Origin: a virus
Lineage: Duplodnaviria; Heunggongvirae; Uroviricota; Caudoviricetes
Strand: one strand, 5' to 3'
IMG/VR virus record: IMGVR_UViG_2681813004_000020
Location: 1 to 12,150 of that record
Length of the DNA stretch: 12,150 nt
The notes below the pieces were generated by a model. That model was not told the DNA's origin and ran no database searches. It saw nothing but the letters and a program-made list of their open reading frames with translations. Below, piece after piece: positions 1 through 11,481 of the stretch; position 1 is the stretch's first letter; each line of letters opens with the position of its first letter. The position numbers and the translations under genes are program-made.

Positions 1-1284
1 TTACTTCTTCGCCTCTGCAACCACTTTACTACCCACGCCGCGGTTATTGTATTCCCACATGCGGTTGTAGTTAGTGTCATTCAGATTGCGCTGTATTTCG
101 TCGTTATCATCTACGCTGCCGGTATTACCCGCAAACGGACGATTAGAGATCACCGCATCGGCCCACGGTTTAGCCGTGTTAAAACCTTCGTTGATGGCGC
201 TATCACGGATCACCACCTGACCGTTGGTATTGGCATCAACATCCAGCGAGCGGCCCAGTTGCGCCACACCATCACCGAAAGCATTGAAACGGCTGTTTAC
301 GGCGAGGAAACCGTAGTAAATGTTGGACAGCGTAGCCGGTGCAAACACATACGCTTCTTGCTGAGTACGTGAGTTCACCACGCGGAATTCGGTGTTATCG
401 AACACCACTGCGCCGCGACCAGAAACGATATCCACATCCCCTTCAATGTAGCTGTTGGTCACCAGCGTACGCGGCTGACGGTTGGTTTCCAGACGGTTCT
501 GCACACCGCTGTTGGTGACAAAGAAGGTGTTCTGACGACCGAGAATGTTAACGTTGTTAATCTGTACCTGGTCACCATCAGTACGCAGTGCCACCGCCGG
601 ATGGTTACCTGCATCTACGCTATCGCCCAGCGTGTTTTCGATGGTCAGATTTTGCAGTTGCAGGCCATTGTTTTGTGACCAGAAGACCGCAGAGCAGAGA
701 ACACCGATACTGTCGCTGCGTTTGCTCTGGCAGCTATCGTACATATACCACGCTGGTTTACCTGGCATATATTTGCCGCGCGGGTTGACGTCGTGACGCC
801 AGTCGGCAGGGCTCATGCCACCATCAAGGGAAAGCCCAATCTTCACATCAATCGGTTTTTCACCTGTACCGTACAGAGTAATTCCACCCGGAGCGGCAGG
901 GACATATACCGTTCCCTGATACTCACCAGGCATCACGGCAATATACTGGCGCTTGTTGGTACGCTTGATAATTGCCGCATCTACCGCCGCCTGAATCGTG
1001 GTATGCGTTACACCTTGAGTGCCCGCCGGGCCGACAATAAAGTCAGGTTGCGCAGGCAGGGTAATCGGGGAAGGATTCCACGCTGCAGCACCTGGTGTCA
1101 GGGATGCAAAATAGTGTTGAGCATCGAAATTCTGCGCTTCTTTTGCCGACAGAATCGGGCGAGAAGAGGTACCAGGCGCGGTTTGATCAGAAGGACGTTG
1201 ATCGGGCGGGGTTGAGCTACAGGCGGTCAGCGTCACGCCAAAAGCCAATGCCAGCGCCAGACGGGAAACTGAAAATGTGTTCAC
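1..1284 (-). CDS. ybhC: YbhC, pectinesterase-fold outer-membrane lipoprotein (acyl-CoA thioesterase), the host gene flanking lambda attB
   Basis: 427-codon ORF filling the window start; N-terminus MNTFSVSRLALALAFGVTLTAC has a signal peptide and lipobox Cys; GTG start at 1284..1282, TAA stop at 3..1; sits directly beside the lambda att core, as in E. coli. Confidence 0.85.
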   Translation of the reverse strand: MNTFSVSRLALALAFGVTLTACSSTPPDQRPSDQTAPGTSSRPILSAKEAQNFDAQHYFASLTPGAAAWNPSPITLPAQPDFIVGPAGTQGVTHTTIQAAVDAAIIKRTNKRQYIAVMPGEYQGTVYVPAAPGGITLYGTGEKPIDVKIGLSLDGGMSPADWRHDVNPRGKYMPGKPAWYMYDSCQSKRSDSIGVLCSAVFWSQNNGLQLQNLTIENTLGDSVDAGNHPAVALRTDGDQVQINNVNILGRQNTFFVTNSGVQNRLETNRQPRTLVTNSYIEGDVDIVSGRGAVVFDNTEFRVVNSRTQQEAYVFAPATLSNIYYGFLAVNSRFNAFGDGVAQLGRSLDVDANTNGQVVIRDSAINEGFNTAKPWADAVISNRPFAGNTGSVDDNDEIQRNLNDTNYNRMWEYNNRGVGSKVVAEAKK

Positions 1285-1330
1285 AGGTTGCTCCGGGCTA
1301 TGAAATAGAAAAATGAATCCGTTGAAGCCT

Positions 1331-1420
1331 GCTTTTTTATACTAAGTTGGCATTATAAAAAAGTATTGCTTATCAATTTGTTGCAACGAACAGGTCACTA
1401 TCAGTCAAAATAAAATCATT
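1331..1420. other. attL (B-O-P'): lambda att core plus P' arm with IHF and Int arm-type sites
   Basis: Exact 15-bp core GCTTTTTTATACTAA at 1331-1345; IHF-consensus TATCAATTTGTTG at 1371-1383; arm-type Int sites AGGTCACTAT and CAGTCAAAAT at 1392-1411; int stop follows at 1419. Confidence 0.9.
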
Positions 1421-2492
1421 ATTTGATTTCAATTTTGTCCCACTCCCTGCCTCTGTCATCACGATACTGTGATGCCATGGTGTCCGACTTATGCCCGAGA
1501 AGATGTTGAGCAAACTTATCGCTTATCTGCTTCTCATAGAGTCTTGCAGACAAACTGCGCAACTCGTGAAAGGTCGGCGGATCCCCTTCGAAGGAAAGAC
1601 CTGATGCTTTTCGTGCGCGCATAAAATACCTTGATACTGTGCCGGATGAAAGCGGTTCACGATGAGTAGATGCAATTATGGTTTCTCCGCCAAGAATCTC
1701 TTTGCATTTATCAAGTGTTTCCTTCATTGATATCCCGAGAGCATCAACATGCAATGTTGTAGGGATGGCAATTTTTACGCCTGTTTTGCTTTGCTCGACA
1801 TAAAGATATCCATCTACGATATCAGACCACTTCATTTCGCATAAATCACCAACTCGCTGCCCGGTAACAACAGCCAGCTCCATTGCAAGTCTTAGCCAAC
1901 ATGGTGATGATTCTGCTGCTTGATAAATTTTCAGGTATTCGTCAGCCGTAAGTCTTGATCTCCTTACCTCTGATTTTGCTGCGCGAGTGGCAGCGACCGG
2001 GTTTGTTGTTATATGGCCTTCTTCAGCTATTGCCTCTCGGAATGCATCGCTCAGTGTTGATCTGATTAACTTGGCTGACGCCGCCTTGCCCTCGTCTATG
2101 TATCCACTGAGCATTGCCGCAATTTCTTTTGTGGTGATGTCTTCAAGTGGAGCATCAGGCAGCCCCCTCCTTATTGCTTTAATTTTGCTCATGTAATTTA
2201 TGAGAGTCTTCTGCTTGATTCCTCTGCTGGCGAGGATTTTTTCGTAGCGATCAAGCCATGAATGTAACGTAACAGAATTATCACTGTTGATTCTCGCTGT
2301 CAGAGGCTTGTGTTTGTGTCCTGAAAATAACTCAATGTTGGCCTGTATTGCTTCAGTGATTGCTATCCTCCTGTCTCGGCCTAATCCAAACTCTTTACCC
2401 GTCCTTGGGTCCCTGTAGCAGTAATATCCATTGTTTCTTATATAAAGATTAGGGGGTAAATCCCGGCGCTCATGACTTCGCCTTCTTCCCAT
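1419..2492 (-). CDS. int: Tyrosine integrase, lambda Int type
   Basis: 357-aa ORF starting MGRRRSHERRDLPPNLYIRNNGYYCYRDPRTGKEF, recalled as near-identical to lambda Int; catalytic elements HELR, LLGH and the Tyr in SQYRDD are present; ATG start; adjacent to attL. Confidence 0.95.
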   Translation of the reverse strand: MGRRRSHERRDLPPNLYIRNNGYYCYRDPRTGKEFGLGRDRRIAITEAIQANIELFSGHKHKPLTARINSDNSVTLHSWLDRYEKILASRGIKQKTLINYMSKIKAIRRGLPDAPLEDITTKEIAAMLSGYIDEGKAASAKLIRSTLSDAFREAIAEEGHITTNPVAATRAAKSEVRRSRLTADEYLKIYQAAESSPCWLRLAMELAVVTGQRVGDLCEMKWSDIVDGYLYVEQSKTGVKIAIPTTLHVDALGISMKETLDKCKEILGGETIIASTHREPLSSGTVSRYFMRARKASGLSFEGDPPTFHELRSLSARLYEKQISDKFAQHLLGHKSDTMASQYRDDRGREWDKIEIK

Positions 2493-2688
2493 TTCTGATC
2501 CTCTTCAAAAGGCTACCTGTTACTGGTCGATTTAAGTCAACCTTTACCGCTGATTCGTGGAACAGATACTCTCTTCCATCCTTAACCGGAGGAGGGAATA
2601 TCCTGCATTCGCGCACCCATCGACGAACTGTTTCAAGGCTTCTTGGGCGTCGCTGGCGTGCATTCCACTCCTGAAGTGTCAAGTACAT
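2470..2688 (-). CDS. xis: Excisionase, lambda Xis type
   Basis: 72-aa ORF MYLTLQEWNARQRRPRSLETVRRWVRECRIFPPPV, recalled as matching lambda Xis; overlaps the int start by 23 nt as in lambda. Confidence 0.93.
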   Translation of the reverse strand: MYLTLQEWNARQRRPRSLETVRRWVRECRIFPPPVKDGREYLFHESAVKVDLNRPVTGSLLKRIRNGKKAKS

Positions 2689-2714
2689 CGCAAAGTCTCC
2701 GCAATTACACGCAA
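2665..2714 (-). promoter_or_regulatory. cII-activated pI-type promoter (TTGC-N6-TTGC box) at the xis 5' end
   Basis: Minus-strand TTGCGTGTAATTGC (plus 2701-2714) lies 13 nt upstream of the xis ATG, matching the lambda cII recognition repeat; the implied transcription start falls inside xis, as known for pI. Exact -10 not determined. Confidence 0.55.
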
Positions 2715-2719
2715 GAAAA

Positions 2720-2735
2720 GCCGCATTGATGCGGC
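2720..2735 (-). other. Perfect 7-bp-stem hairpin (GCCGCAT/ATGCGGC) followed by TTTTCTT on the minus strand, just upstream of the cII box; possible weak terminator or RNA processing site
   Basis: Inverted repeat read directly from the sequence; the loop is only 2 nt if fully paired, so terminator function is uncertain. Confidence 0.3.
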
Positions 2736-2794
2736 GATGGTAGGTCTGGATATCATTGAGCCATGAACAGGCCTCATCGAGTGTGAGGCTGTGG

Positions 2795-3139
2795 TTAGTC
2801 CTTTCGTAACTCGCTGATTCTCCTGTAAGTCTCTGGTGCTTTGTTTCCGTGTATCTTCATTTCAGACTTCAACAGAGCAACGAGGGAATCCCATTCGTTG
2901 AGGATGCCTTTGAATGCCGGAACGCGCTTTGCAACCTTGTCGAATGAATCTCTGATTTCTGGAATCTTCTCAACAAGTGCAACGCATCGTCGGAAGTCTG
3001 CTGCGTCATGGGGAGCGCCGAAGTGATGACCATAGATATTCTTTTTCAGGCCACATGCGATTGAGGCAAGAGTTGCGCTACTGATGCCAACATCGCCAGT
3101 CGATTGCCATTTCAAAACCTTCATAGACAAATCTGACAT
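2795..3139 (-). CDS. Hypothetical protein, 114 aa, int/xis-proximal accessory gene
   Basis: ATG at 3139..3137 preceded by GGAGACAAGAA (Shine-Dalgarno GGAG); TAA stop at 2795; no family recognised. Confidence 0.6.
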   Translation of the reverse strand: MSDLSMKVLKWQSTGDVGISSATLASIACGLKKNIYGHHFGAPHDAADFRRCVALVEKIPEIRDSFDKVAKRVPAFKGILNEWDSLVALLKSEMKIHGNKAPETYRRISELRKD

Positions 3140-3167
3140 TTCTTGTCTCCAATAAAAAAAACCTCCA

Positions 3168-3335
3168 TCAGGCGGCTTGGTGTTCTTTCAGTTCTTCAAT
3201 TCGAATATTGGTTACGTCTGCATGTGCTATCTGCGCCCATATCATCCAGTGGTCATAGCAGTCATTGATGTTCTCTGCTTCGATAACTCTGTTGAATGGT
3301 TCTCCATTCCATTCACCTGTGACTCGGAAGTGCAT
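3168..3335 (-). CDS. Hypothetical small protein, 55 aa (MHFRVTGEWNGEPFNRVIEAENINDCYDHWMIWAQIAHADVTNIRIEELKEHQAA)
   Basis: Found by manual translation (absent from the ORF track); ATG at 3335..3333 preceded by GGAGATGATAA; TGA stop at 3170..3168. Confidence 0.5.
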   Translation of the reverse strand: MHFRVTGEWNGEPFNRVIEAENINDCYDHWMIWAQIAHADVTNIRIEELKEHQAA

Positions 3336-3373
3336 TTATCATCTCCATAAAACAAAATCCGCCGTAGCGAGTT

Positions 3374-3404
3374 CAGATAAAAGAAATCCCCGCGAGTGCG
3401 AGGA
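3374..3404 (-). terminator. Intrinsic terminator candidate directly after the ASCH-protein stop
   Basis: Minus strand TCCTCGC-ACTC-GCGGGGA (7-bp stem with one G-U pair, 4-nt loop; plus 3387-3404) followed by TTTCTTTTATCTG (plus 3374-3386). Confidence 0.5.
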
Positions 3405-3407
3405 TTG

Positions 3408-3692
3408 TTATTCATTGCCGATATTCACCTTTATCGCGAACACCTTTACCGGTTTATCACCGAAGTGCGGATGTGTGATTGTCTTGATTTCATATCCGTC
3501 ATACGGAACATCAATTCTGCGGCTGGAATCGTCGCGCTTCGGATATCCCTTTGTGATAATCAGGCGGTCATACTCCCGGAACATAATTCGCTTATTCCAA
3601 TAGTCATTACACAGGCGATACTCTTCCGTTTTCTCTCCTCGAATCATGGCATCGAAGTATTCACCTTTGACGGCAAGTTGTAGGTTAGCCAC
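3408..3692 (-). CDS. ASCH-domain protein, 94 aa
   Basis: N-terminal LQLAVKGEYFDAMIRGEKTEEYR contains the ASCH signature GxKxxExR (G19-K21-E24-R26); GTG start at 3692..3690 preceded by AGGAGG with 7-nt spacing; overlaps the upstream stop by 8 nt. Confidence 0.7.
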   Translation of the reverse strand: MANLQLAVKGEYFDAMIRGEKTEEYRLCNDYWNKRIMFREYDRLIITKGYPKRDDSSRRIDVPYDGYEIKTITHPHFGDKPVKVFAIKVNIGNE

Positions 3693-3987
3693 GGTTAACC
3701 TCCTGCGGAGTAGCCTTTACAAGCACTGGTGCAAATCCATCTTCATTAAGGTTATGAATATAGACTTCTGTTCTCCTGCGCTCTTCAACGTTTAATATTG
3801 TTTCTGGATCATAAACCCATACTTTCATTCGACTATTCCATGAAGAAATCGCTTCAGATCTAGTTCGTTTTTCTGGTCCTTGGGCACCACATTTGCATGA
3901 CACATAGCGCATTTTCCCTCTGATACTGAATGAGTATCCGATGTTAAGCACAGTGGAACCACAGAATGGGCAGCGATATAGATTCAT
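3685..3987 (-). CDS. Lar-family-like zinc-ribbon protein (restriction alleviation family) with a ~45-aa C-terminal extension, 100 aa
   Basis: N-terminal LYRCPFCGSTVL...VSCKCGAQGPEKRTRSEAISSWNSR matches the recalled Lar-family pattern CPFCG...C-x-CGA-x-GP...EAI-x-x-WN-x-R; ATG preceded by AAGGTGGA; ATGA stop/start overlap with the upstream gene. Confidence 0.55.
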   Translation of the reverse strand: MNLYRCPFCGSTVLNIGYSFSIRGKMRYVSCKCGAQGPEKRTRSEAISSWNSRMKVWVYDPETILNVEERRRTEVYIHNLNEDGFAPVLVKATPQEVNRG

Positions 3988-4601
3988 AAATCATCCACCT
4001 TAGGCGCAGCTGAGACAGCAACATTCCAGAACTCAGAAAACATATTGTATGCACCAGATAGATTGGAAGTAGCATACCCTCCAAGCTCACTTCTAATCTG
4101 AACGGCTCTCATCATTTCCGGGGTTAACTCCTTCGGCACCATAACCCAACCATCCGGAGTTACCGGAGAGTTGCCACCGGGAATATTTTCCGGAATATTT
4201 TGTTGTGCGTTTTGTGGTTGTTCTGATTTACCCTGAAGCATGGCGGCGCGGCAGGCGTTCCAGCCAGCTGTTCGCCCAAGCGCGTAAACTTCAGATGGAT
4301 CAAGATAATCAATGTCATGCCCGTCCTCATCGTCGTTCTCAGGTAATGCAGCAGGTACTACCGGTACTGGCGGAGCGGCGTAGACCTCAATAATTCCATT
4401 ATCAATAGGCCATTCTCCATCCTTGAGGTAGTCACTTGTGCCGTCAACTTGCTGTTCTGCAATGTGGAATGCACCTATTGGTTTTGCTTCCAGCGATGCC
4501 AGAGCAATCCGTGCCAGTTCCATTTGTTCGCCACTAGTAAGTCCGTTATCAAGCGGGGATTTAATGAACAATTCGATACGTTCTTTAGTGATAGTGCTCA
4601 T
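3984..4601 (-). CDS. Hypothetical protein, 205 aa
   Basis: Start set to the internal ATG at 4601..4599 (MSTITKERIELF...), which has an AGGAG SD 7 nt upstream and lies 1 nt after the upstream TGA stop; the 33-codon extension in the ORF track overlaps the neighbouring gene and has no SD. Confidence 0.6.
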   Translation of the reverse strand: MSTITKERIELFIKSPLDNGLTSGEQMELARIALASLEAKPIGAFHIAEQQVDGTSDYLKDGEWPIDNGIIEVYAAPPVPVVPAALPENDDEDGHDIDYLDPSEVYALGRTAGWNACRAAMLQGKSEQPQNAQQNIPENIPGGNSPVTPDGWVMVPKELTPEMMRAVQIRSELGGYATSNLSGAYNMFSEFWNVAVSAAPKVDDL

Positions 4602-4602
4602 A

Positions 4603-5160
4603 TCACTCTCCTTTGATGCGAATGCCAGCTGCGCTTGCTGATTCTTCATATGCGCGTTTAGCAGCGTTAAGGATTGCTGCCAGTGGCGTATAGCCGCCAT
4701 CCATTCGGATTGTGTTGTGGATGCCAGCCATTGTGTCGCGCAATTTGCTGTGGCTAGCAGACAGTTCTGCTATGCACTTCTCTGCGGCATCGGCTCGATC
4801 TTTTTCACGCTGGAACATTTTGTGAGTGCGGTCTATAGCTTCGATTCGTGCCGCTGATGTCTTCTGCACGGCTTCAAGCTCAACACGCAGCTTCCCAACC
4901 GTAAGAGCAATATCCTCGTTCTTCTGGTCGCGGCGTTTGATGTATTGCTGGTTTCTTTCCCGTTCATCCAGTAGTGCCAGCACGGTTTCTGGCCCGGTCA
5001 GAAATTTGAAGGCGTTGAGCGCATCAATATCCACACCGTAATCCTTAAGTTCCTGTTCAGTTAACAAATCATCATCAACTGGCAACATTAACAGGCGTTC
5101 CATTGCCGGAATTGCACGCTCTGCCGCCTCACGCAGTGCCTGATAGTCAATCTTGCTCAT
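4603..5160 (-). CDS. ea22: Ea22-like protein, 185 aa
   Basis: Internal LLDERERNQQYIKRRDQKNEDIALTVGKLRVELE and C-terminal AGIRIKGE resemble lambda Ea22 as recalled; AAAGGAG SD 8 nt upstream; ATGA overlap with the upstream stop. Confidence 0.5.
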   Translation of the reverse strand: MSKIDYQALREAAERAIPAMERLLMLPVDDDLLTEQELKDYGVDIDALNAFKFLTGPETVLALLDERERNQQYIKRRDQKNEDIALTVGKLRVELEAVQKTSAARIEAIDRTHKMFQREKDRADAAEKCIAELSASHSKLRDTMAGIHNTIRMDGGYTPLAAILNAAKRAYEESASAAGIRIKGE

Positions 5161-5714
5161 TGGATGACTCCTTTACGAAGCTGTTCGGCGATATCTTCGA
5201 GAATGCCATCAGAGAATGAACGGTCAAAATCGCCTTCCGGCGCATTGGCCATAAACTCAGTAGAGGTAAGAATCATCCGGGCAATATCAGCGGCGTTCTT
5301 CGCAGTATCATCAATAAAACCAGCTTCCCAGGCAGCCAGCATTCTGTTCGCCACAAAGTAAGCGCCCTCCTTGCGTGCTTCAGTCTTCACTTCAGCCAGA
5401 AAAGCATCGGTGGCTGGGGTTTCAGTAATATCATCTTCCCATTCGCTAAACTCCTCACGACAAAAGTCATTAAATTCCTTCTCAGATTGCTTAAGCGAGG
5501 AATTTTCAGCAGCCATCTTCGCGCATTTAGCCTCAAGGTTATCAATCGTGATTCCAGCAGAACGACACTCCCGCAACGCCGTTTCTAGTTTTGATTCAAG
5601 TTCACCGAACTTACGGACAAGATATTCATCGTTTGTTTCGTCAACCTTTAAATCACTTGGGATGCATTTACCTTTCAGAAAACCATCCATCTCAATTAGT
5701 GTCATTTGTTTCAT
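5157..5714 (-). CDS. Hypothetical acidic protein, 185 aa (start at [12 protein letters not shown])
   Basis: ORF track starts at a GTG (5732..5730); the first ATG (5714..5712) forms an ATGA overlap with the upstream stop and is preferred; a second ATG lies at 5705. Confidence 0.55.
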
Positions 5715-5875
5715 TTCTTCCCACTCCGCCACATCGCATTCAGATATTTGTTGTCATTAACAGAACCGAAACTCTTTCTCTTAAGCAATTCCTCTCTCGA
5801 TGGCATTGGCTTTGCGCGTTGGCGAATAATCATTTCTGCCGGAAGAATGCCGGGATTGTATGCAAGTCCTCTCAT
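5711..5875 (-). CDS. Hypothetical small protein, 54 aa ([54 protein letters not shown])
   Basis: ATG at 5875..5873 preceded by GAGGAA; an in-frame upstream ATG at 5893 would give 60 aa; start lies inside copy 1 of the 109-bp tandem duplication. Confidence 0.45.
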
Positions 5876-6049
5876 GGTAAATTCCTCAGTCATTACTGAT
5901 AGCGCCATAGCGTGAGCGGTAATTACGCAGGCGCGGGTCAATTTCTGCCGGAAGAATGCCGGGATTGTATGCAAGTCCTCTCATGGTAAATTCCTCAGTC
6001 ATTACTGATAGCGCCATAGCGTGAGCGGTAATTACGCAGGCGCGGGTCA
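5832..6049. repeat. Perfect tandem duplication, 2 x 109 bp (5832-5940 and 5941-6049), with 5-bp microhomology ATTTC continuing at 6050-6054
   Basis: Base-by-base comparison: the two units are identical; the flanks differ (C at 5831, AGGG at 6055). Confidence 0.95.
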
Positions 6050-6288
6050 ATTTCAGGGAAGTGGGTATATGTGGCTTTGCGGAATGGTCGGATTGATGTC
6101 TGGTAAATTCGCTCGCGTTCTTCTTTCTCTGCAAGCCATATACAATGGCGAAATTCCTTTTCCTCTTTCGTTTCCTGCGGTAGCGACATTATCCGATCGT
6201 AGTTTTTTCTGAATTTATCCAGCACCTCCGATACGGAATTGCCGGAACAGCGGCGCGCGTCATCCGCACCATACAGAGGCGCTGGCAT
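5995..6288 (-). CDS. Hypothetical protein A1, 97 aa (MPAPLYGADDARRCSGNSVSEVL...), paralog of the 8937-9119 gene
   Basis: ATG at 6288 preceded by CAGGAGAAAAC; stop lies inside copy 2 of the 109-bp duplication; first 30 nt identical to the paralog. Confidence 0.6.
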   Translation of the reverse strand: MPAPLYGADDARRCSGNSVSEVLDKFRKNYDRIMSLPQETKEEKEFRHCIWLAEKEERERIYQTSIRPFRKATYTHFPEIDPRLRNYRSRYGAISND

Positions 6289-6304
6289 GGTTTTCTCCTG
6301 TTGA

Positions 6305-6853
6305 TTATTTAGCTAACTTTTTCCAGATCGCTGAAACGTATTTGGCTTGGTGAATGGCATCATCAAGCGCGTTGTGGCGAGTTCCTTTGAATGGCATATC
6401 TCGCTTAGGGTCTAATCCTATTACCTTCCCAAGTTCGACGATTGTTCTTACGTCGCGGTCATTCCACCACTGCCACGGAACTGGCTGCCCTGTCAGCGAA
6501 TAACTGTTTCGGAGAATAACGCAGTCAAATGATGCTCCATTCCCCCAAACCTGAACGAATTTGTGGTTAGCGTTCTTTATGATGAATTCAGATAACCATG
6601 AAAGAGCCGTTGAAAGCTCCTGAGTGTTGCTGGTTAGCGATTTTCTGGCTTCTTCACTCTGTTCCAGCCACCATAAAATCGTTGAAGCGTCAGGACGCGC
6701 CCGATATCGCATTGATGACTCAAGCGAGATATTTACCGAGAACTCTTCTCCTGTTTCTCCGGTATTCGGGTCAAAGAATACCGCCCCAATAGAAATAACT
6801 GGCGCATATGGCCCGTTGCCCATTGTTTCAAGGTCAACCATTAAGTGATTCAT
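6305..6853 (-). CDS. DnaQ-like DEDDh 3'-5' exonuclease, 182 aa
   Basis: Exo I motif VDLETMG near the N-terminus and H-x4-D motif HNALDDA near the C-terminus; AAGGA SD; lies next to ssb as in many prophage recombination modules. Confidence 0.8.
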   Translation of the reverse strand: MNHLMVDLETMGNGPYAPVISIGAVFFDPNTGETGEEFSVNISLESSMRYRARPDASTILWWLEQSEEARKSLTSNTQELSTALSWLSEFIIKNANHKFVQVWGNGASFDCVILRNSYSLTGQPVPWQWWNDRDVRTIVELGKVIGLDPKRDMPFKGTRHNALDDAIHQAKYVSAIWKKLAK

Positions 6854-8334: not shown

Positions 8335-8483
8335 TTCCTGCGATACCACGGATGGTTGATAGCTGATTTCATCGCTTTATTTGCTTCAAGCCACATTTTT
8401 GAATCACCAATAAATCTGGCTATTACTGCTTTGTTCTGTGCAGCACGAAGCATCTGGTGATTGATGGCTATTTCATTGCGCAT
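8331..8483 (-). CDS. Kil-like small protein (paralog), 50 aa
   Basis: MRNEIAINHQMLRAAQNKAVIARFIGDSKMWLEANKAMK... aligns with the other module's Kil (IATFIGDEKMFREAVEA versus IARFIGDSKMWLEANKA); GGAGG SD 5 nt upstream; start overlaps the 3' end of the cIII-like gene. Confidence 0.6.
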   Translation of the reverse strand: MRNEIAINHQMLRAAQNKAVIARFIGDSKMWLEANKAMKSAINHPWYRRK

Positions 8484-8602
8484 AACGCCTCCAGTTGTTT
8501 CTTTGCTGCTCTGATTAATTGTTTAACTCGGCGTGATAATTCAGATTCGTGCGGGTAGAAAGCGGACATGACGCCGCTACCCGCGAGCTGAAAGTGCATC
8601 AT
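8468..8602 (-). CDS. CIII-like small protein (divergent paralog), 44 aa
   Basis: MMHFQLAGSGVMSAFYPHESELSRRVKQLIRAAKKQL parallels CIII (AGxx...SESLLERITRKLRDGWKRL); TAAGGAG SD 5 nt upstream; immediately downstream of repeat copy 1; same cIII-then-overlapping-kil arrangement. Confidence 0.6.
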   Translation of the reverse strand: MMHFQLAGSGVMSAFYPHESELSRRVKQLIRAAKKQLEALCAMK

Positions 8603-8664
8603 GGGTAACTCCTTATATTTGATTGCATAACGAAAACGCCTCGAGTGAAGCGTTATTGGTATGC

Positions 8665-8692
8665 ATATAAAAAAGCCCTCACACTGGAGGGC
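8665..8692 (-). terminator. Intrinsic terminator inside repeat copy 1
   Basis: Minus strand GCCCTC-CAGTGT-GAGGGC followed by TTTTTTATAT; a second weaker hairpin AACGCTTC-ACTC-GAGGCGTT then TTCGTT lies at plus 8635-8654. Confidence 0.6.
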
Positions 8693-8785
8693 AAAGAAGA
8701 TTTCCAATAATCAGAACAAGTCGGCTCCTGTTTAGTTACGAGCGACATTGCTCACATAGCAGACTCGCAAATCTGCTATAGGTGC

Positions 8786-8944
8786 TTATTCGCATCGCAT
8801 GACAACATCAAATTTTTCGAGATTACTTTGTCGCAACAATCCTTCTTCTACGCGGTCAGCTTTTCTATAATTATCAAATTCGAAATGTTTAATTACTTCT
8901 TTCGTTTCTCGCTCTATAACTTCAACAATGTATTTCTTATTCAT
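8786..8944 (-). CDS. Hypothetical small protein, 52 aa (MNKKYIVEVIERETKEVIKHFEFDNYRKADRVEEGLLRQSNLEKFDVVMRCE), copy 1
   Basis: Manual translation; ATG overlaps the stop of the upstream gene (GATGAATAA); weak SD; duplicated exactly at 11027-11185. Confidence 0.4.
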   Translation of the reverse strand: MNKKYIVEVIERETKEVIKHFEFDNYRKADRVEEGLLRQSNLEKFDVVMRCE

Positions 8945-9119
8945 CGTTCTCATCTTTTAACGCGAGTTGTATATCGCGTCGGTACATCCGTTCTGCTTTT
9001 GTTTCTGGTGGCAGATCAATAAACGTGTCGAAAATGTTTTTGATATTTTCCAGCACCTCCGCCTTGGAGCTACCGGAGCAATTGCGCGGGTCATCCGCAC
9101 CATACAGAGGCGCTGGCAT
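8937..9119 (-). CDS. Hypothetical protein A2, 60 aa (MPAPLYGADDPRNCSGSSKAEVL...), paralog of the 5995-6288 gene
   Basis: ATG at 9119; first 30 nt identical to A1, then diverging; TAA stop overlaps the start of the 52-aa ORF. Confidence 0.55.
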   Translation of the reverse strand: MPAPLYGADDPRNCSGSSKAEVLENIKNIFDTFIDLPPETKAERMYRRDIQLALKDENDE

Positions 9120-9142
9120 AATGGGAGCCTTATTTTCAGTAA

Positions 9143-9730
9143 TCAGAAAGGAGGGTAATCGTTCTGGCTGTAACCATAATCATCTGCATGATTCTGGCTT
9201 ACGTTTTTAGAGCGATTGTCTTTATCTTTGAGATTGGCAACCATGTTGGCGATAGTTTCTGGTTGCTTGCCTTCTGCCTTTTCTTTAAGGGTTTGACCTG
9301 TTTGTGCAATAAACGGGATGCGTATTTCCATCTGGTAGCTGTCTGCGCCAGTCTTTTTGTTTGTGGTTAATACTTTCTGGAGCACTAACCCGATTTTCTT
9401 TCCATGAAATTCAGGTGCAACAAATTTACTGGCGGAAACCATATGCTGCGTTAATTGTCCAATCCCGGCACACCCCATCATGGCGTGAACGACATTTGCG
9501 CCAAATTTGTTTTCCGTGCCGTCATTTTTCTGAACACAGACGCTAAGATATTGGATTTTACGTCCGTCGTCGGATTCGCCAGAAAACTCAATAAATTTGG
9601 CTCCTTTTTCTGATTGCTTTAGTTCTGCTTCAGTAATGGTAATGATATGAGCACCAGTTTCGTTAATAAAACCACCTTGCCCTGCGGTCAGTGCTGCTTC
9701 TTCGTTATAAGTAAAAATCACGTTGCTCAT
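9143..9730 (-). CDS. Putative cognate ssDNA-binding partner of Sak4 (DUF669-like?), 195 aa, with an SSB-like C-terminal tail DYPPF
   Basis: ATGA overlap with the Sak4 stop; C-terminus ...HADDYGYSQNDYPPF resembles the acidic SSB tip DDDIPF; family assignment by context and tail only. Confidence 0.5.
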   Translation of the reverse strand: MSNVIFTYNEEAALTAGQGGFINETGAHIITITEAELKQSEKGAKFIEFSGESDDGRKIQYLSVCVQKNDGTENKFGANVVHAMMGCAGIGQLTQHMVSASKFVAPEFHGKKIGLVLQKVLTTNKKTGADSYQMEIRIPFIAQTGQTLKEKAEGKQPETIANMVANLKDKDNRSKNVSQNHADDYGYSQNDYPPF

Positions 9731-10407
9731 GCGGCGTTTTCCTTAATTTGATGAACATTATTGATGCCGTAGTAATCACAAACAGTGGCATCGACGAAAG
9801 AGAGATCGTTATCAATCTCATTGGAATCAAACATTCCCATTGGGGATTTAACAGTGTCTGCACCGTTGTTTTTTGTGGTGAAAAAGAACTGGTCATCACG
9901 GGTAAGGGTGCGAAGAACTATAGTAAACATGCCTTCGACAGTGATTTTCTCGTCCAGCATTTTGCCGATAGTCTTCATTTTCACACGCCCCATAGGAGTT
10001 TCTTCGGTGTGCGCAAGAAAATAGACTCTCAGGTCATCAGGCGCATCCTGCGCAGCCTTAATGACCTCCCATGCGTGACGGCCTATCTCAGTAAATTTAT
10101 CAAACGATTTTTCTTCTGAGCGGCGCATAAACTCATTGCTCATCACATACTGGAAGTCATCAACAATAACGATTCTTTTCCCGTATTCGTGAGCACGCTT
10201 AATTACGGCAACTATTACGTCCCATTTGTCAGTGGTAACTACGGTTCCTTTTTTTGCTCTGGCATCCCATGCAAGCCAGTCTTTTGATTTAAATGGTAGC
10301 GGCTTGCCTATTGGTTTTATAAGTATTGCTTCCTCTGGATTGATATTTCTCATGCTGGTTGATTTTCCGGTGCCAGACTCACCGAGTATTAATGTCGCAG
10401 TTCCCAT
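9727..10407 (-). CDS. Sak4-like RecA-core P-loop ATPase (AAA_24-type phage recombination protein), 226 aa
   Basis: Walker A GESGTGKS at residues 9-16, Walker B-like IVIVDD; size and position downstream of kil, where lambda has its Red recombination genes; GAGG SD. Confidence 0.7.
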   Translation of the reverse strand: MGTATLILGESGTGKSTSMRNINPEEAILIKPIGKPLPFKSKDWLAWDARAKKGTVVTTDKWDVIVAVIKRAHEYGKRIVIVDDFQYVMSNEFMRRSEEKSFDKFTEIGRHAWEVIKAAQDAPDDLRVYFLAHTEETPMGRVKMKTIGKMLDEKITVEGMFTIVLRTLTRDDQFFFTTKNNGADTVKSPMGMFDSNEIDNDLSFVDATVCDYYGINNVHQIKENAA

Positions 10408-10415
10408 AATTTGCC

Positions 10416-10604
10416 TCAGAATGGTAATTCGGATGGGGAGGAAAGAAACTCGCGCTCATTCATGCGCTCTCTTTGTGCCTGCCATAAACAAAGTTGTTTC
10501 TTTGATTTATCTCCCGCTTTACGCCAGTAACGAGCCTCAGCAATGTGATATTCTCTTTTTAATCGACTTAACTCTGGAGTTTTCGCCAGTTCTACCGGAA
10601 TCAT
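10416..10604 (-). CDS. Hypothetical small protein, 62 aa (MIPVELAKTPELSRLKREYHIAEARYWRKAGDKSKKQLCLWQAQRERMNEREFLSSPSELPF)
   Basis: Internal ATG with GGAGG SD and an ATGA overlap with the kil stop; paralogous to the 56-aa protein at 8085-8255. Confidence 0.5.
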   Translation of the reverse strand: MIPVELAKTPELSRLKREYHIAEARYWRKAGDKSKKQLCLWQAQRERMNEREFLSSPSELPF

Positions 10605-10714
10605 TTTGACCTCCATTTCCTGTAGGCTTCGACGGCCTCACGAAACATCTTTTCATCGCCAATAAAAGTGGCGATAGTGAATTTAGTCTGGATAGCCATA
10701 AGTGTTTTATCCAT
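10601..10714 (-). CDS. kil: Kil (FtsZ-targeting host-killing peptide), 37 aa
   Basis: MDKTLMAIQTKFTIATFIGDEKMFREAVEAYRKWRSK; ATG overlaps the last codons of cIII as in lambda; the ORF-track version includes an unsupported N-terminal extension. Confidence 0.6.
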   Translation of the reverse strand: MDKTLMAIQTKFTIATFIGDEKMFREAVEAYRKWRSK

Positions 10715-10847
10715 TTTTTGGAACTCCTGGCTGATTAAGTATGTCGATAAGGCGTTTCCATCCGTCACGTAATTTACGTGTGATTCGCTCAAGTAAAGAT
10801 TCGGAAGGGCAGCCAGCAACAGGCCACCCTGCAATGGCATATTGCAT
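10707..10847 (-). CDS. cIII: CIII (FtsH/HflB protease inhibitor), lambda type, 46 aa
   Basis: MQYAIAGWPVAGCPSESLLERITRKLRDGWKRLIDILNQPGVPKNG matches lambda CIII as recalled over its whole length; AAGGAG SD 7 nt upstream; lambda CIII is recalled as about 8 residues longer. Confidence 0.8.
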   Translation of the reverse strand: MQYAIAGWPVAGCPSESLLERITRKLRDGWKRLIDILNQPGVPKNG

Positions 10848-10905
10848 GGTGTGCTCCTTATTTATACATAACGAAAACGCCTCGAGTGAAGCGTTATTGG
10901 TATGC

Positions 10906-10933
10906 ATATAAAAAAGCCCTCACACTGGAGGGC
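10906..10933 (-). terminator. Intrinsic terminator inside repeat copy 2
   Basis: Same GCCCTC-CAGTGT-GAGGGC plus U-tract as in copy 1. Confidence 0.6.
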
Positions 10934-11026
10934 AAAGAAGATTTCCAATAATCAGAACAAGTCGGCTCCTGTTTAGTTACGAGCGACATTGCTCACATAG
11001 CAGACTCGCAAATCTGCTATAGGTGC

Positions 11027-11185
11027 TTATTCGCATCGCATGACAACATCAAATTTTTCGAGATTACTTTGTCGCAACAATCCTTCTTCTACGCGGTCAG
11101 CTTTTCTATAATTATCAAATTCGAAATGTTTAATTACTTCTTTCGTTTCTCGCTCTATAACTTCAACAATGTATTTCTTATTCAT
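11027..11185 (-). CDS. Hypothetical small protein, 52 aa, copy 2 (one extra in-frame ATG upstream)
   Basis: Identical to 8786-8944; here preceded by GGGGAAGA, and the ATG overlaps the stop of the 98-aa gene. Confidence 0.4.
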   Translation of the reverse strand: MNKKYIVEVIERETKEVIKHFEFDNYRKADRVEEGLLRQSNLEKFDVVMRCE

Positions 11186-11481
11186 CATTCTTCCCCAAGA
11201 GCTTTTCTGATTGCTGCAAGACCTTTATTAACAGCTCCATACCATTCTGGATATGTTGTCTTTGTTCTATTTTTGGTTTGCTTAAGTAATAACTGAAGTG
11301 CTTCGAGAAGGTCAGGTGCTGCCGCTATTAGATTGGCATCTTCAATGCATTGAACTTCCTCACAGATTGCAATATACGAACGCCAGCCTGCGCCATTTTC
11401 AAGTGAGTCTGCCTGGATGATTTTAATCTCATCGCCATCCATCATTATTTCCCACTTACCTTCAGTACCTTTAAATTCCAT
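11185..11481 (-). CDS. Hypothetical protein, 98 aa
   Basis: ATG at 11481 preceded by AGAGGCTAAC; acidic N-terminal half; no family recognised. Confidence 0.6.
   Translation of the reverse strand: MEFKGTEGKWEIMMDGDEIKIIQADSLENGAGWRSYIAICEEVQCIEDANLIAAAPDLLEALQLLLKQTKNRTKTTYPEWYGAVNKGLAAIRKALGEE

Follow-up and report, generated by a model that had tools for sequence, protein, structure and literature searches.

The early-left (pL) operon of a lambdoid prophage of Escherichia coli carries a perfect tandem duplication of 109 bp across the junction of two adjacent genes, namely abc2, which encodes the phage anti-RecBCD protein 2, and a gene of the DUF2737 family. The extra copy most probably arose in vivo and is not a product of the assembly. 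It is best explained, again with good confidence, as a recent and spontaneous microhomology-mediated tandem duplication in an operon repressed by CI, and it is likely neutral. Both flanking genes remain intact, and a hybrid open reading frame (ORF) of 32 codons has been formed between them.

The window, that is the whole stretch of DNA that was analysed (12,150 bp), belongs to a lambdoid prophage at the ybhC/lambda attB site in the E. coli draft assembly GCA_001447405.1. It matches contig AOTC01000251.1 (36,774 bp) with 0 mismatches over 11,984 bp. The window starts in ybhC and then runs through int, xis and the early-left operon, with all genes on the minus strand.

Structure of the repeat and of the hybrid reading frame

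The two units of the repeat occupy positions 5832-5940 and 5941-6049, and direct comparison showed them to be identical. In the analysis with Tandem Repeats Finder (TRF) they formed the sole array in the 12,150-bp window (5832-6054, period 109, 2.0 copies, 100% matches, 0 indels), arranged head-to-tail without a spacer. At an offset of 109 the match is 114 bases long: the pentamer ATTTC continues for 5 bases past the second unit (6050-6054), and there is no extension to the left. The same five bases open each of the units (5832-5836 and 5941-5945). A perfect repeat of 109 bp cannot be of chance origin. The novel junction at 5940/5941 reads GGGTCA/ATTTCTGCC, while the outer boundaries read AATAATC/ATTTCTG on entering one unit and GGGTCA/ATTTCAGGG on leaving. 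In the single-copy ancestor the endpoints of the duplication correspond to two ATTTC pentamers at a distance of 109 bp.

Read along the coding strand, each unit consists of abc2 codons 80-97 with the TGA stop, a 10-nt spacer and the first 14 codons of the DUF2737 gene. It also includes the Shine-Dalgarno (SD) site GAGGA, which overlaps the abc2 stop and is located 7 nt before the ATG. The promoter-proximal copy (5941-6049) contains the genuine 3' end of abc2 (codons 80-97 and the stop), together with a second SD/start that opens the hybrid ORF. The other copy (5832-5940) is promoter-distal on the minus-strand operon. It contains a redundant abc2 tail, which forms the 3' part of the hybrid ORF, followed by the SD and the first 14 codons of the functional DUF2737 gene. 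As the duplicated interval extends across the gene boundary, one complete copy of each flanking gene is preserved.

The abc2 gene (5995-6288, minus strand) encodes an intact protein of 97 aa that matches PF11043 over positions 1-97 of 97 (E 5.6e-63, 209.6 bits, cut-off 25) and is identical to RefSeq WP_001111278.1. It is a full-length, highly similar homologue of the Abc2 of phage P22 (PDB 8b1t/8b1u; 8b1t_A, E 2.8e-57), in which P68 is conserved. The DUF2737 gene (5711-5875, minus strand) is intact as well. Its product of 54 aa is a full-length member of the family (PF10930, E 2.3e-28), is identical to RefSeq WP_001214436.1 and, going by the annotation in relatives, is a homologue of HK97 gp38 and HK620 hkaI. 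The stop of this gene overlaps the start of the next one (ATGA), which is hkaH-like and encodes 185 aa.

The hybrid ORF (5886-5984, minus strand) translates into DUF2737 residues 1-14 followed by Abc2 residues 80-97. Its ATG (5984-5982) is situated in the promoter-proximal copy, and its SD (GAGGA, 5992-5996) has the same 7-nt spacing as at the native DUF2737 start. The translation-initiation region is identical in sequence to the native one because the whole unit was duplicated. The stop codon of the hybrid ORF (TGA) shares bases with the SD that precedes the genuine DUF2737 gene. The resulting gene order is abc2, hybrid ORF and DUF2737, with a 10-nt stop-to-start spacer at each step.

In the Pfam search the hybrid matched PF10930 at positions 1-15 and PF11043 at positions 78-97 (hybrid residues 13-32). 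The first of these matches covers only 15 of the 53 profile positions and, at 26.1 bits, is barely above the cut-off of 25. Whereas the 54-aa product is a complete DUF2737 protein, the hybrid shares just the first 14-15 residues with this family. From Abc2 it has residues 80-97 alone, a disordered tail that is absent from the model of the RecBCD complex, and it should not be counted as an Abc2. The hybrid is present in RefSeq as WP_187640473.1 under the name 'DUF2737 family protein'. Judged by its composition (14 DUF2737 residues and 18 residues of the Abc2 tail), this name is nominal and misleading.

A preliminary description of this DNA had already placed the two identical units at 5832-5940 and 5941-6049, which TRF and the direct comparison confirm to the base. 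The 5 bp of microhomology that it placed at the distal junction are real, as seen from the 114-base match. ORF translation and the Pfam matches likewise bear out that the unit spans the 3' end of abc2 (there called A1) and the SD/start of the 54-aa gene, and that the hybrid peptide has precisely the 32 residues that were proposed. Both flanking genes had been considered intact, in agreement with the identity of their products to the two RefSeq proteins. The fusion had also been described as out of frame. This is correct relative to DUF2737 but not for the Abc2 tail, which is read in its native frame, as hybrid residues 13-32 align with PF11043 positions 78-97. On the coding strand the microhomology (GAAAT) has the codon phase GAA-AT in both genes (Abc2 E79-I80, DUF2737 E14-M15), and this shared phase keeps the Abc2 part of the hybrid in its original frame.

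Distribution of the duplication and the prophage context

Upon removal of one unit, a locus of 780 bp is obtained that is 100% identical to E. coli E2865 (NZ_AP018808.1) and to several Stx1a-converting phages; these identical relatives span 109 bp less than the window locus. The locus is present in about 1,370 of the 5,426 complete E. coli genomes and in about 147 phage records, and all of them are single-copy. A BLAST search with a 120-bp junction sequence was uninformative, as each half alone matches single-copy genomes. It was replaced by a 49-nt query in which any 28-nt megablast seed necessarily includes the new junction. No match to this 49-mer was found in the 50,697 phage records searched, and the 5,426 complete E. 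coli genomes gave five partial matches, all in ETEC.

The five ETEC matches were rejected as carriers of the duplication: their loci are single-copy and differ by an A-to-T SNP that changes ATTTCA to ATTTCT (ATTTCTGGG). In E. coli ETEC1730 and the genomes of four related ETEC from pigs, this SNP is found in abc2 at the equivalent of positions 6050-6056. As a result, the direct repeat that abc2 has in common with the DUF2737 side measures 7 bp (ATTTCTG) there and not 5 bp (ATTTC), yet the locus of this group is still single-copy.

The search was extended to the exact 34-nt junction, for which there were 0 matches in the GTDB species representatives, IMG/VR and the JGI metagenomes. A codon-degenerate junction pattern produced 3 matches (a Burkholderiaceae MAG and two metagenome contigs), which is about the number expected by chance. 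They show neither abc2/DUF2737 context nor flanking homology and were dismissed as chance matches. In a collection of about 15 billion proteins the hybrid has no other member in its 90% cluster, and AOTC01000251.1 is the only contig that encodes it. The 109-bp duplication is private to one assembly. Given that the copies are undiverged and that the immediate relatives are single-copy, this private occurrence points to a very recent event.

The surrounding operon is mosaic. From position 1 to 6288 the window is 99.7-100% identical to the prophage of E. coli E2865 (O26-type), apart from an IS3-family insertion in E2865 near window position 3122 that is absent from the window. A sharp mosaic boundary follows at 6288/6289, exactly at the start of abc2. 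Upstream of this boundary, E2865 has a hypothetical gene and an ERF recombinase, whereas the window has a 3'-5' exonuclease, SSB and a Rad52-like protein. In several relatives the abc2/DUF2737/hkaH interval contains extra genes, e.g. an HNH endonuclease (HK629) or a 'replication initiation protein' (HK446), and this is also the case in the PhiR12 series. This segment of the operon appears to be a recurrent hot-spot for insertion and mosaicism. The 109-bp duplication thus shares its region with the mosaic junctions and morons of lambdoid early-left operons, where insertion and module exchange around abc2, DUF2737 and hkaH are frequent and a module boundary coincides with the abc2 start. In those cases, however, foreign DNA has been acquired, while the 109-bp case is a self-duplication.

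A second private rearrangement was observed on the same contig. Here, an extra early-left module, complete in itself, is flanked by the two copies of a perfect 320-bp direct repeat (8626-8945 and 10867-11186; whole region 8626-11186). It is composed of cIII, kil, an AAA/Sak4-like ATPase, a 195-aa protein (DUF669 in relatives) and an abc2' truncated to 60 aa (8937-9119). The second module is situated downstream of the extra one and comprises cIII, kil, the Rad52-like protein, SSB, the 3'-5' exonuclease and the full abc2. In total the prophage contains two cIII, two kil, two recombinase modules and about 1.6 abc2 genes. The lambda cIII thermoregulator (Rfam RF01804, 88.5 bits) was detected at 10802-10860 on the minus strand, at the cIII of the extra module (module A). 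It was matched for this cIII only, as the leader of the module-B cIII (8468-8602) is below the Rfam gathering score for RF01804.

At the junction of abc2' with the repeat (8945/8946), only about 3-4 bp are shared with the parental sequences. The truncated abc2' protein was found on AOTC01000251.1 only, and the repeat-module-repeat arrangement is contiguous in no complete E. coli genome. As a marker for close relatives in the pre-duplication state the abc2'/repeat junction was of no use, being private to the same contig. It may be speculated that the 109-bp and 8945/8946 junctions could stem from related events.

Origin of the duplication

For the 109-bp duplication a slippage-type mechanism is inferred. 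A nascent strand whose last bases are ATTTC (GAAAT in coding orientation) would slip to the identical pentamer located 109 bp behind, at the same replication fork. The slipped strand would then copy the 109-bp interval a second time, through slipped-strand or template-switch replication. Tandem-repeat junctions in E. coli typically show 4-15 bp of microhomology, and events that span a few hundred to a few thousand bp have been attributed to template switching within one fork (PMC1428787; see also PMC3411829). By chance, a junction microhomology of at least 5 bp is expected in about 0.5% (0.005) of the possible 109-bp duplications in the collapsed window, and in 0.6% when random unit lengths of 50-300 bp are taken. 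Since microhomology of this length is rare by chance, it favours template switching or slippage over an artefact of contig concatenation. A structural cause of slippage, namely a hairpin by which the two pentamers would be brought close to each other, is unsupported by the fold z-scores at the unit (-0.85 for DNA and -0.52 for RNA).

The same features are known from microhomology tandem duplications in E. coli and Salmonella: a head-to-tail repeat, a 5-bp endpoint repeat of which one copy is found at the novel junction, a short range (109 bp), identical copies and revertibility by recombination or slippage. The mechanism is thus undistinctive. The sole peculiarity is that the endpoints have the same codon phase in two adjacent genes, by which an in-frame hybrid mini-ORF is created. 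The recent, microhomology-mediated duplication that the preliminary description had put forward is supported both by the private occurrence in one assembly and by the single copy in relatives that are otherwise 100% identical. The two-copy variant would be expected to be unstable and to return to the single-copy state when the identical 109-bp repeats recombine or replication slips between them. Going by work of the Lovett laboratory on E. coli tandem repeats of roughly 100 bp, this collapse would be expected at a rate of the order of 1e-5 to 1e-4 per generation and would depend little on RecA. The earlier argument that the duplication can revert cleanly because 109 is not a multiple of 3 is a non sequitur: reversion needs two identical direct repeats and is independent of the length modulo 3.

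It may be asked whether the second unit was instead introduced during assembly or finishing. Contigs or graph nodes with an overlap of 109 bp (e.g. at k = 109) would then have been joined untrimmed, and the real genome would contain one unit. Odd k-mer sizes, including 109, can be used by assemblers, and the unit length is both odd and within the usable range of de Bruijn k-mers. Such an artefact would also agree with the presence of the duplication in a single draft WGS contig (AOTC01000251.1 of GCA_001447405.1), while the roughly 1,370 E. coli genomes and 147 phages with the locus are all single-copy. Nevertheless, this explanation is considered unlikely. Concatenation predicts no microhomology above chance, whereas random placement would yield the observed 5 bp in about 0.5% of cases. 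The site lies well within the 36.8-kb contig, with about 6.4 kb between it and the closer of the two ends. Moreover, assemblers tend to collapse short tandem repeats and do not usually expand them. Finally, the second private junction on the same contig shows a signature of illegitimate recombination (3-4 bp) that an assembler cannot create, and this supports a real history of illegitimate recombination in the prophage.

Consequences for the operon and the hybrid peptide

In a lysogen the pL operon is repressed, and therefore the variant should be phenotypically silent until induction. In view of this repression and of the intact flanking genes, it is probably neutral. Through the extra copy, a 32-codon ORF with what would be a bona fide ribosome-binding site has been placed between abc2 and DUF2737. 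After induction of the prophage, translation is predicted to proceed from abc2 to the hybrid ORF and from there to DUF2737. Since the duplication included the whole translation-initiation region, ribosomes should initiate at the hybrid ORF with about the same efficiency as at the native DUF2737 gene, and the coupling by termination and reinitiation should be preserved.

A duplicated regulatory element is unsupported: no promoter or terminator is predicted in 5500-6400, and no Rfam family was found at the duplication site. The tL3 terminator annotated in HK620 hkaI is located at about codons 32-35, outside the 14 duplicated codons. A functional or programmed tandem repeat (a phase-variable repeat, an iteron array or a regulatory RNA) was rejected, as the repeat is private, has two copies and gives no RNA or structural signal.

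For the peptide itself, the cryo-EM structures of RecBCD-Abc2-PpiB offer a point of reference. In these structures the model of Abc2 covers residues 3-66, PpiB is engaged by P68 and the remaining C-terminus is disordered (PMC9836394). The part beyond residue ~66 is outside the modelled RecC-binding helices, and it has been suggested that the C-terminus reaches in the direction of the RecB motor domains (PMC9836394). The hybrid, with PF11043 positions 78-97 only, contains neither the RecC-binding helices (residues 3-66) nor P68. Without the known RecC-binding part, the peptide is most likely an inert by-product. The literature on the function of DUF2737 yielded nothing useful.

A selected, functional duplication is accordingly judged very improbable. 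Here, the hybrid peptide would modulate RecBCD, PpiB or Abc2, or the mini-ORF would retune the coupling and the dosage of DUF2737 and the downstream genes. The perfect copy of the native SD/start and the Abc2 tail read in frame would fit such a role, as would the proposed reach of the Abc2 C-terminus towards the RecB motor domains (PMC9836394). However, the duplication occurs in a single assembly without spread or recurrence, and its identical copies indicate a very recent event. The peptide is also devoid of the residues that bind RecC (3-66) and of the P68 that engages PpiB, and a fusion would be in frame by chance in about 1 of 3 cases. With the operon repressed in lysogens, the opportunity for selection is small. 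Hardly any credence is given to the specific proposal that the hybrid is translated on induction and that the free 32-aa peptide modulates or competes with Abc2, RecBCD or PpiB, or that the mini-ORF retunes the translational coupling of DUF2737. If this were true, it would represent the birth of a microprotein by gene-junction duplication, caught in the act.

The consensus of an assembly is seldom decided by minority or chimeric reads, and it is therefore highly improbable that the second copy is owed to template switching during library amplification, which also uses microhomology in vitro, or to a minority-cell variant promoted into the consensus, even though spontaneous duplications are common as such variants in cultures (PMC3411829).

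Overall, the duplication is regarded as an ordinary, recent and probably neutral structural variant of the slippage type, which is of a well-known kind and involves no new biological system. Its significance is small and concerns annotation hygiene and its use as a textbook example. A genuine duplication would make the strain a natural 109-bp tandem-repeat reporter for reversion, and an artefact would call for correction of the record. The case illustrates how slippage across a gene boundary, between pentamers in the same codon phase, can give rise to a translatable hybrid mini-ORF and leave the parent genes undamaged.
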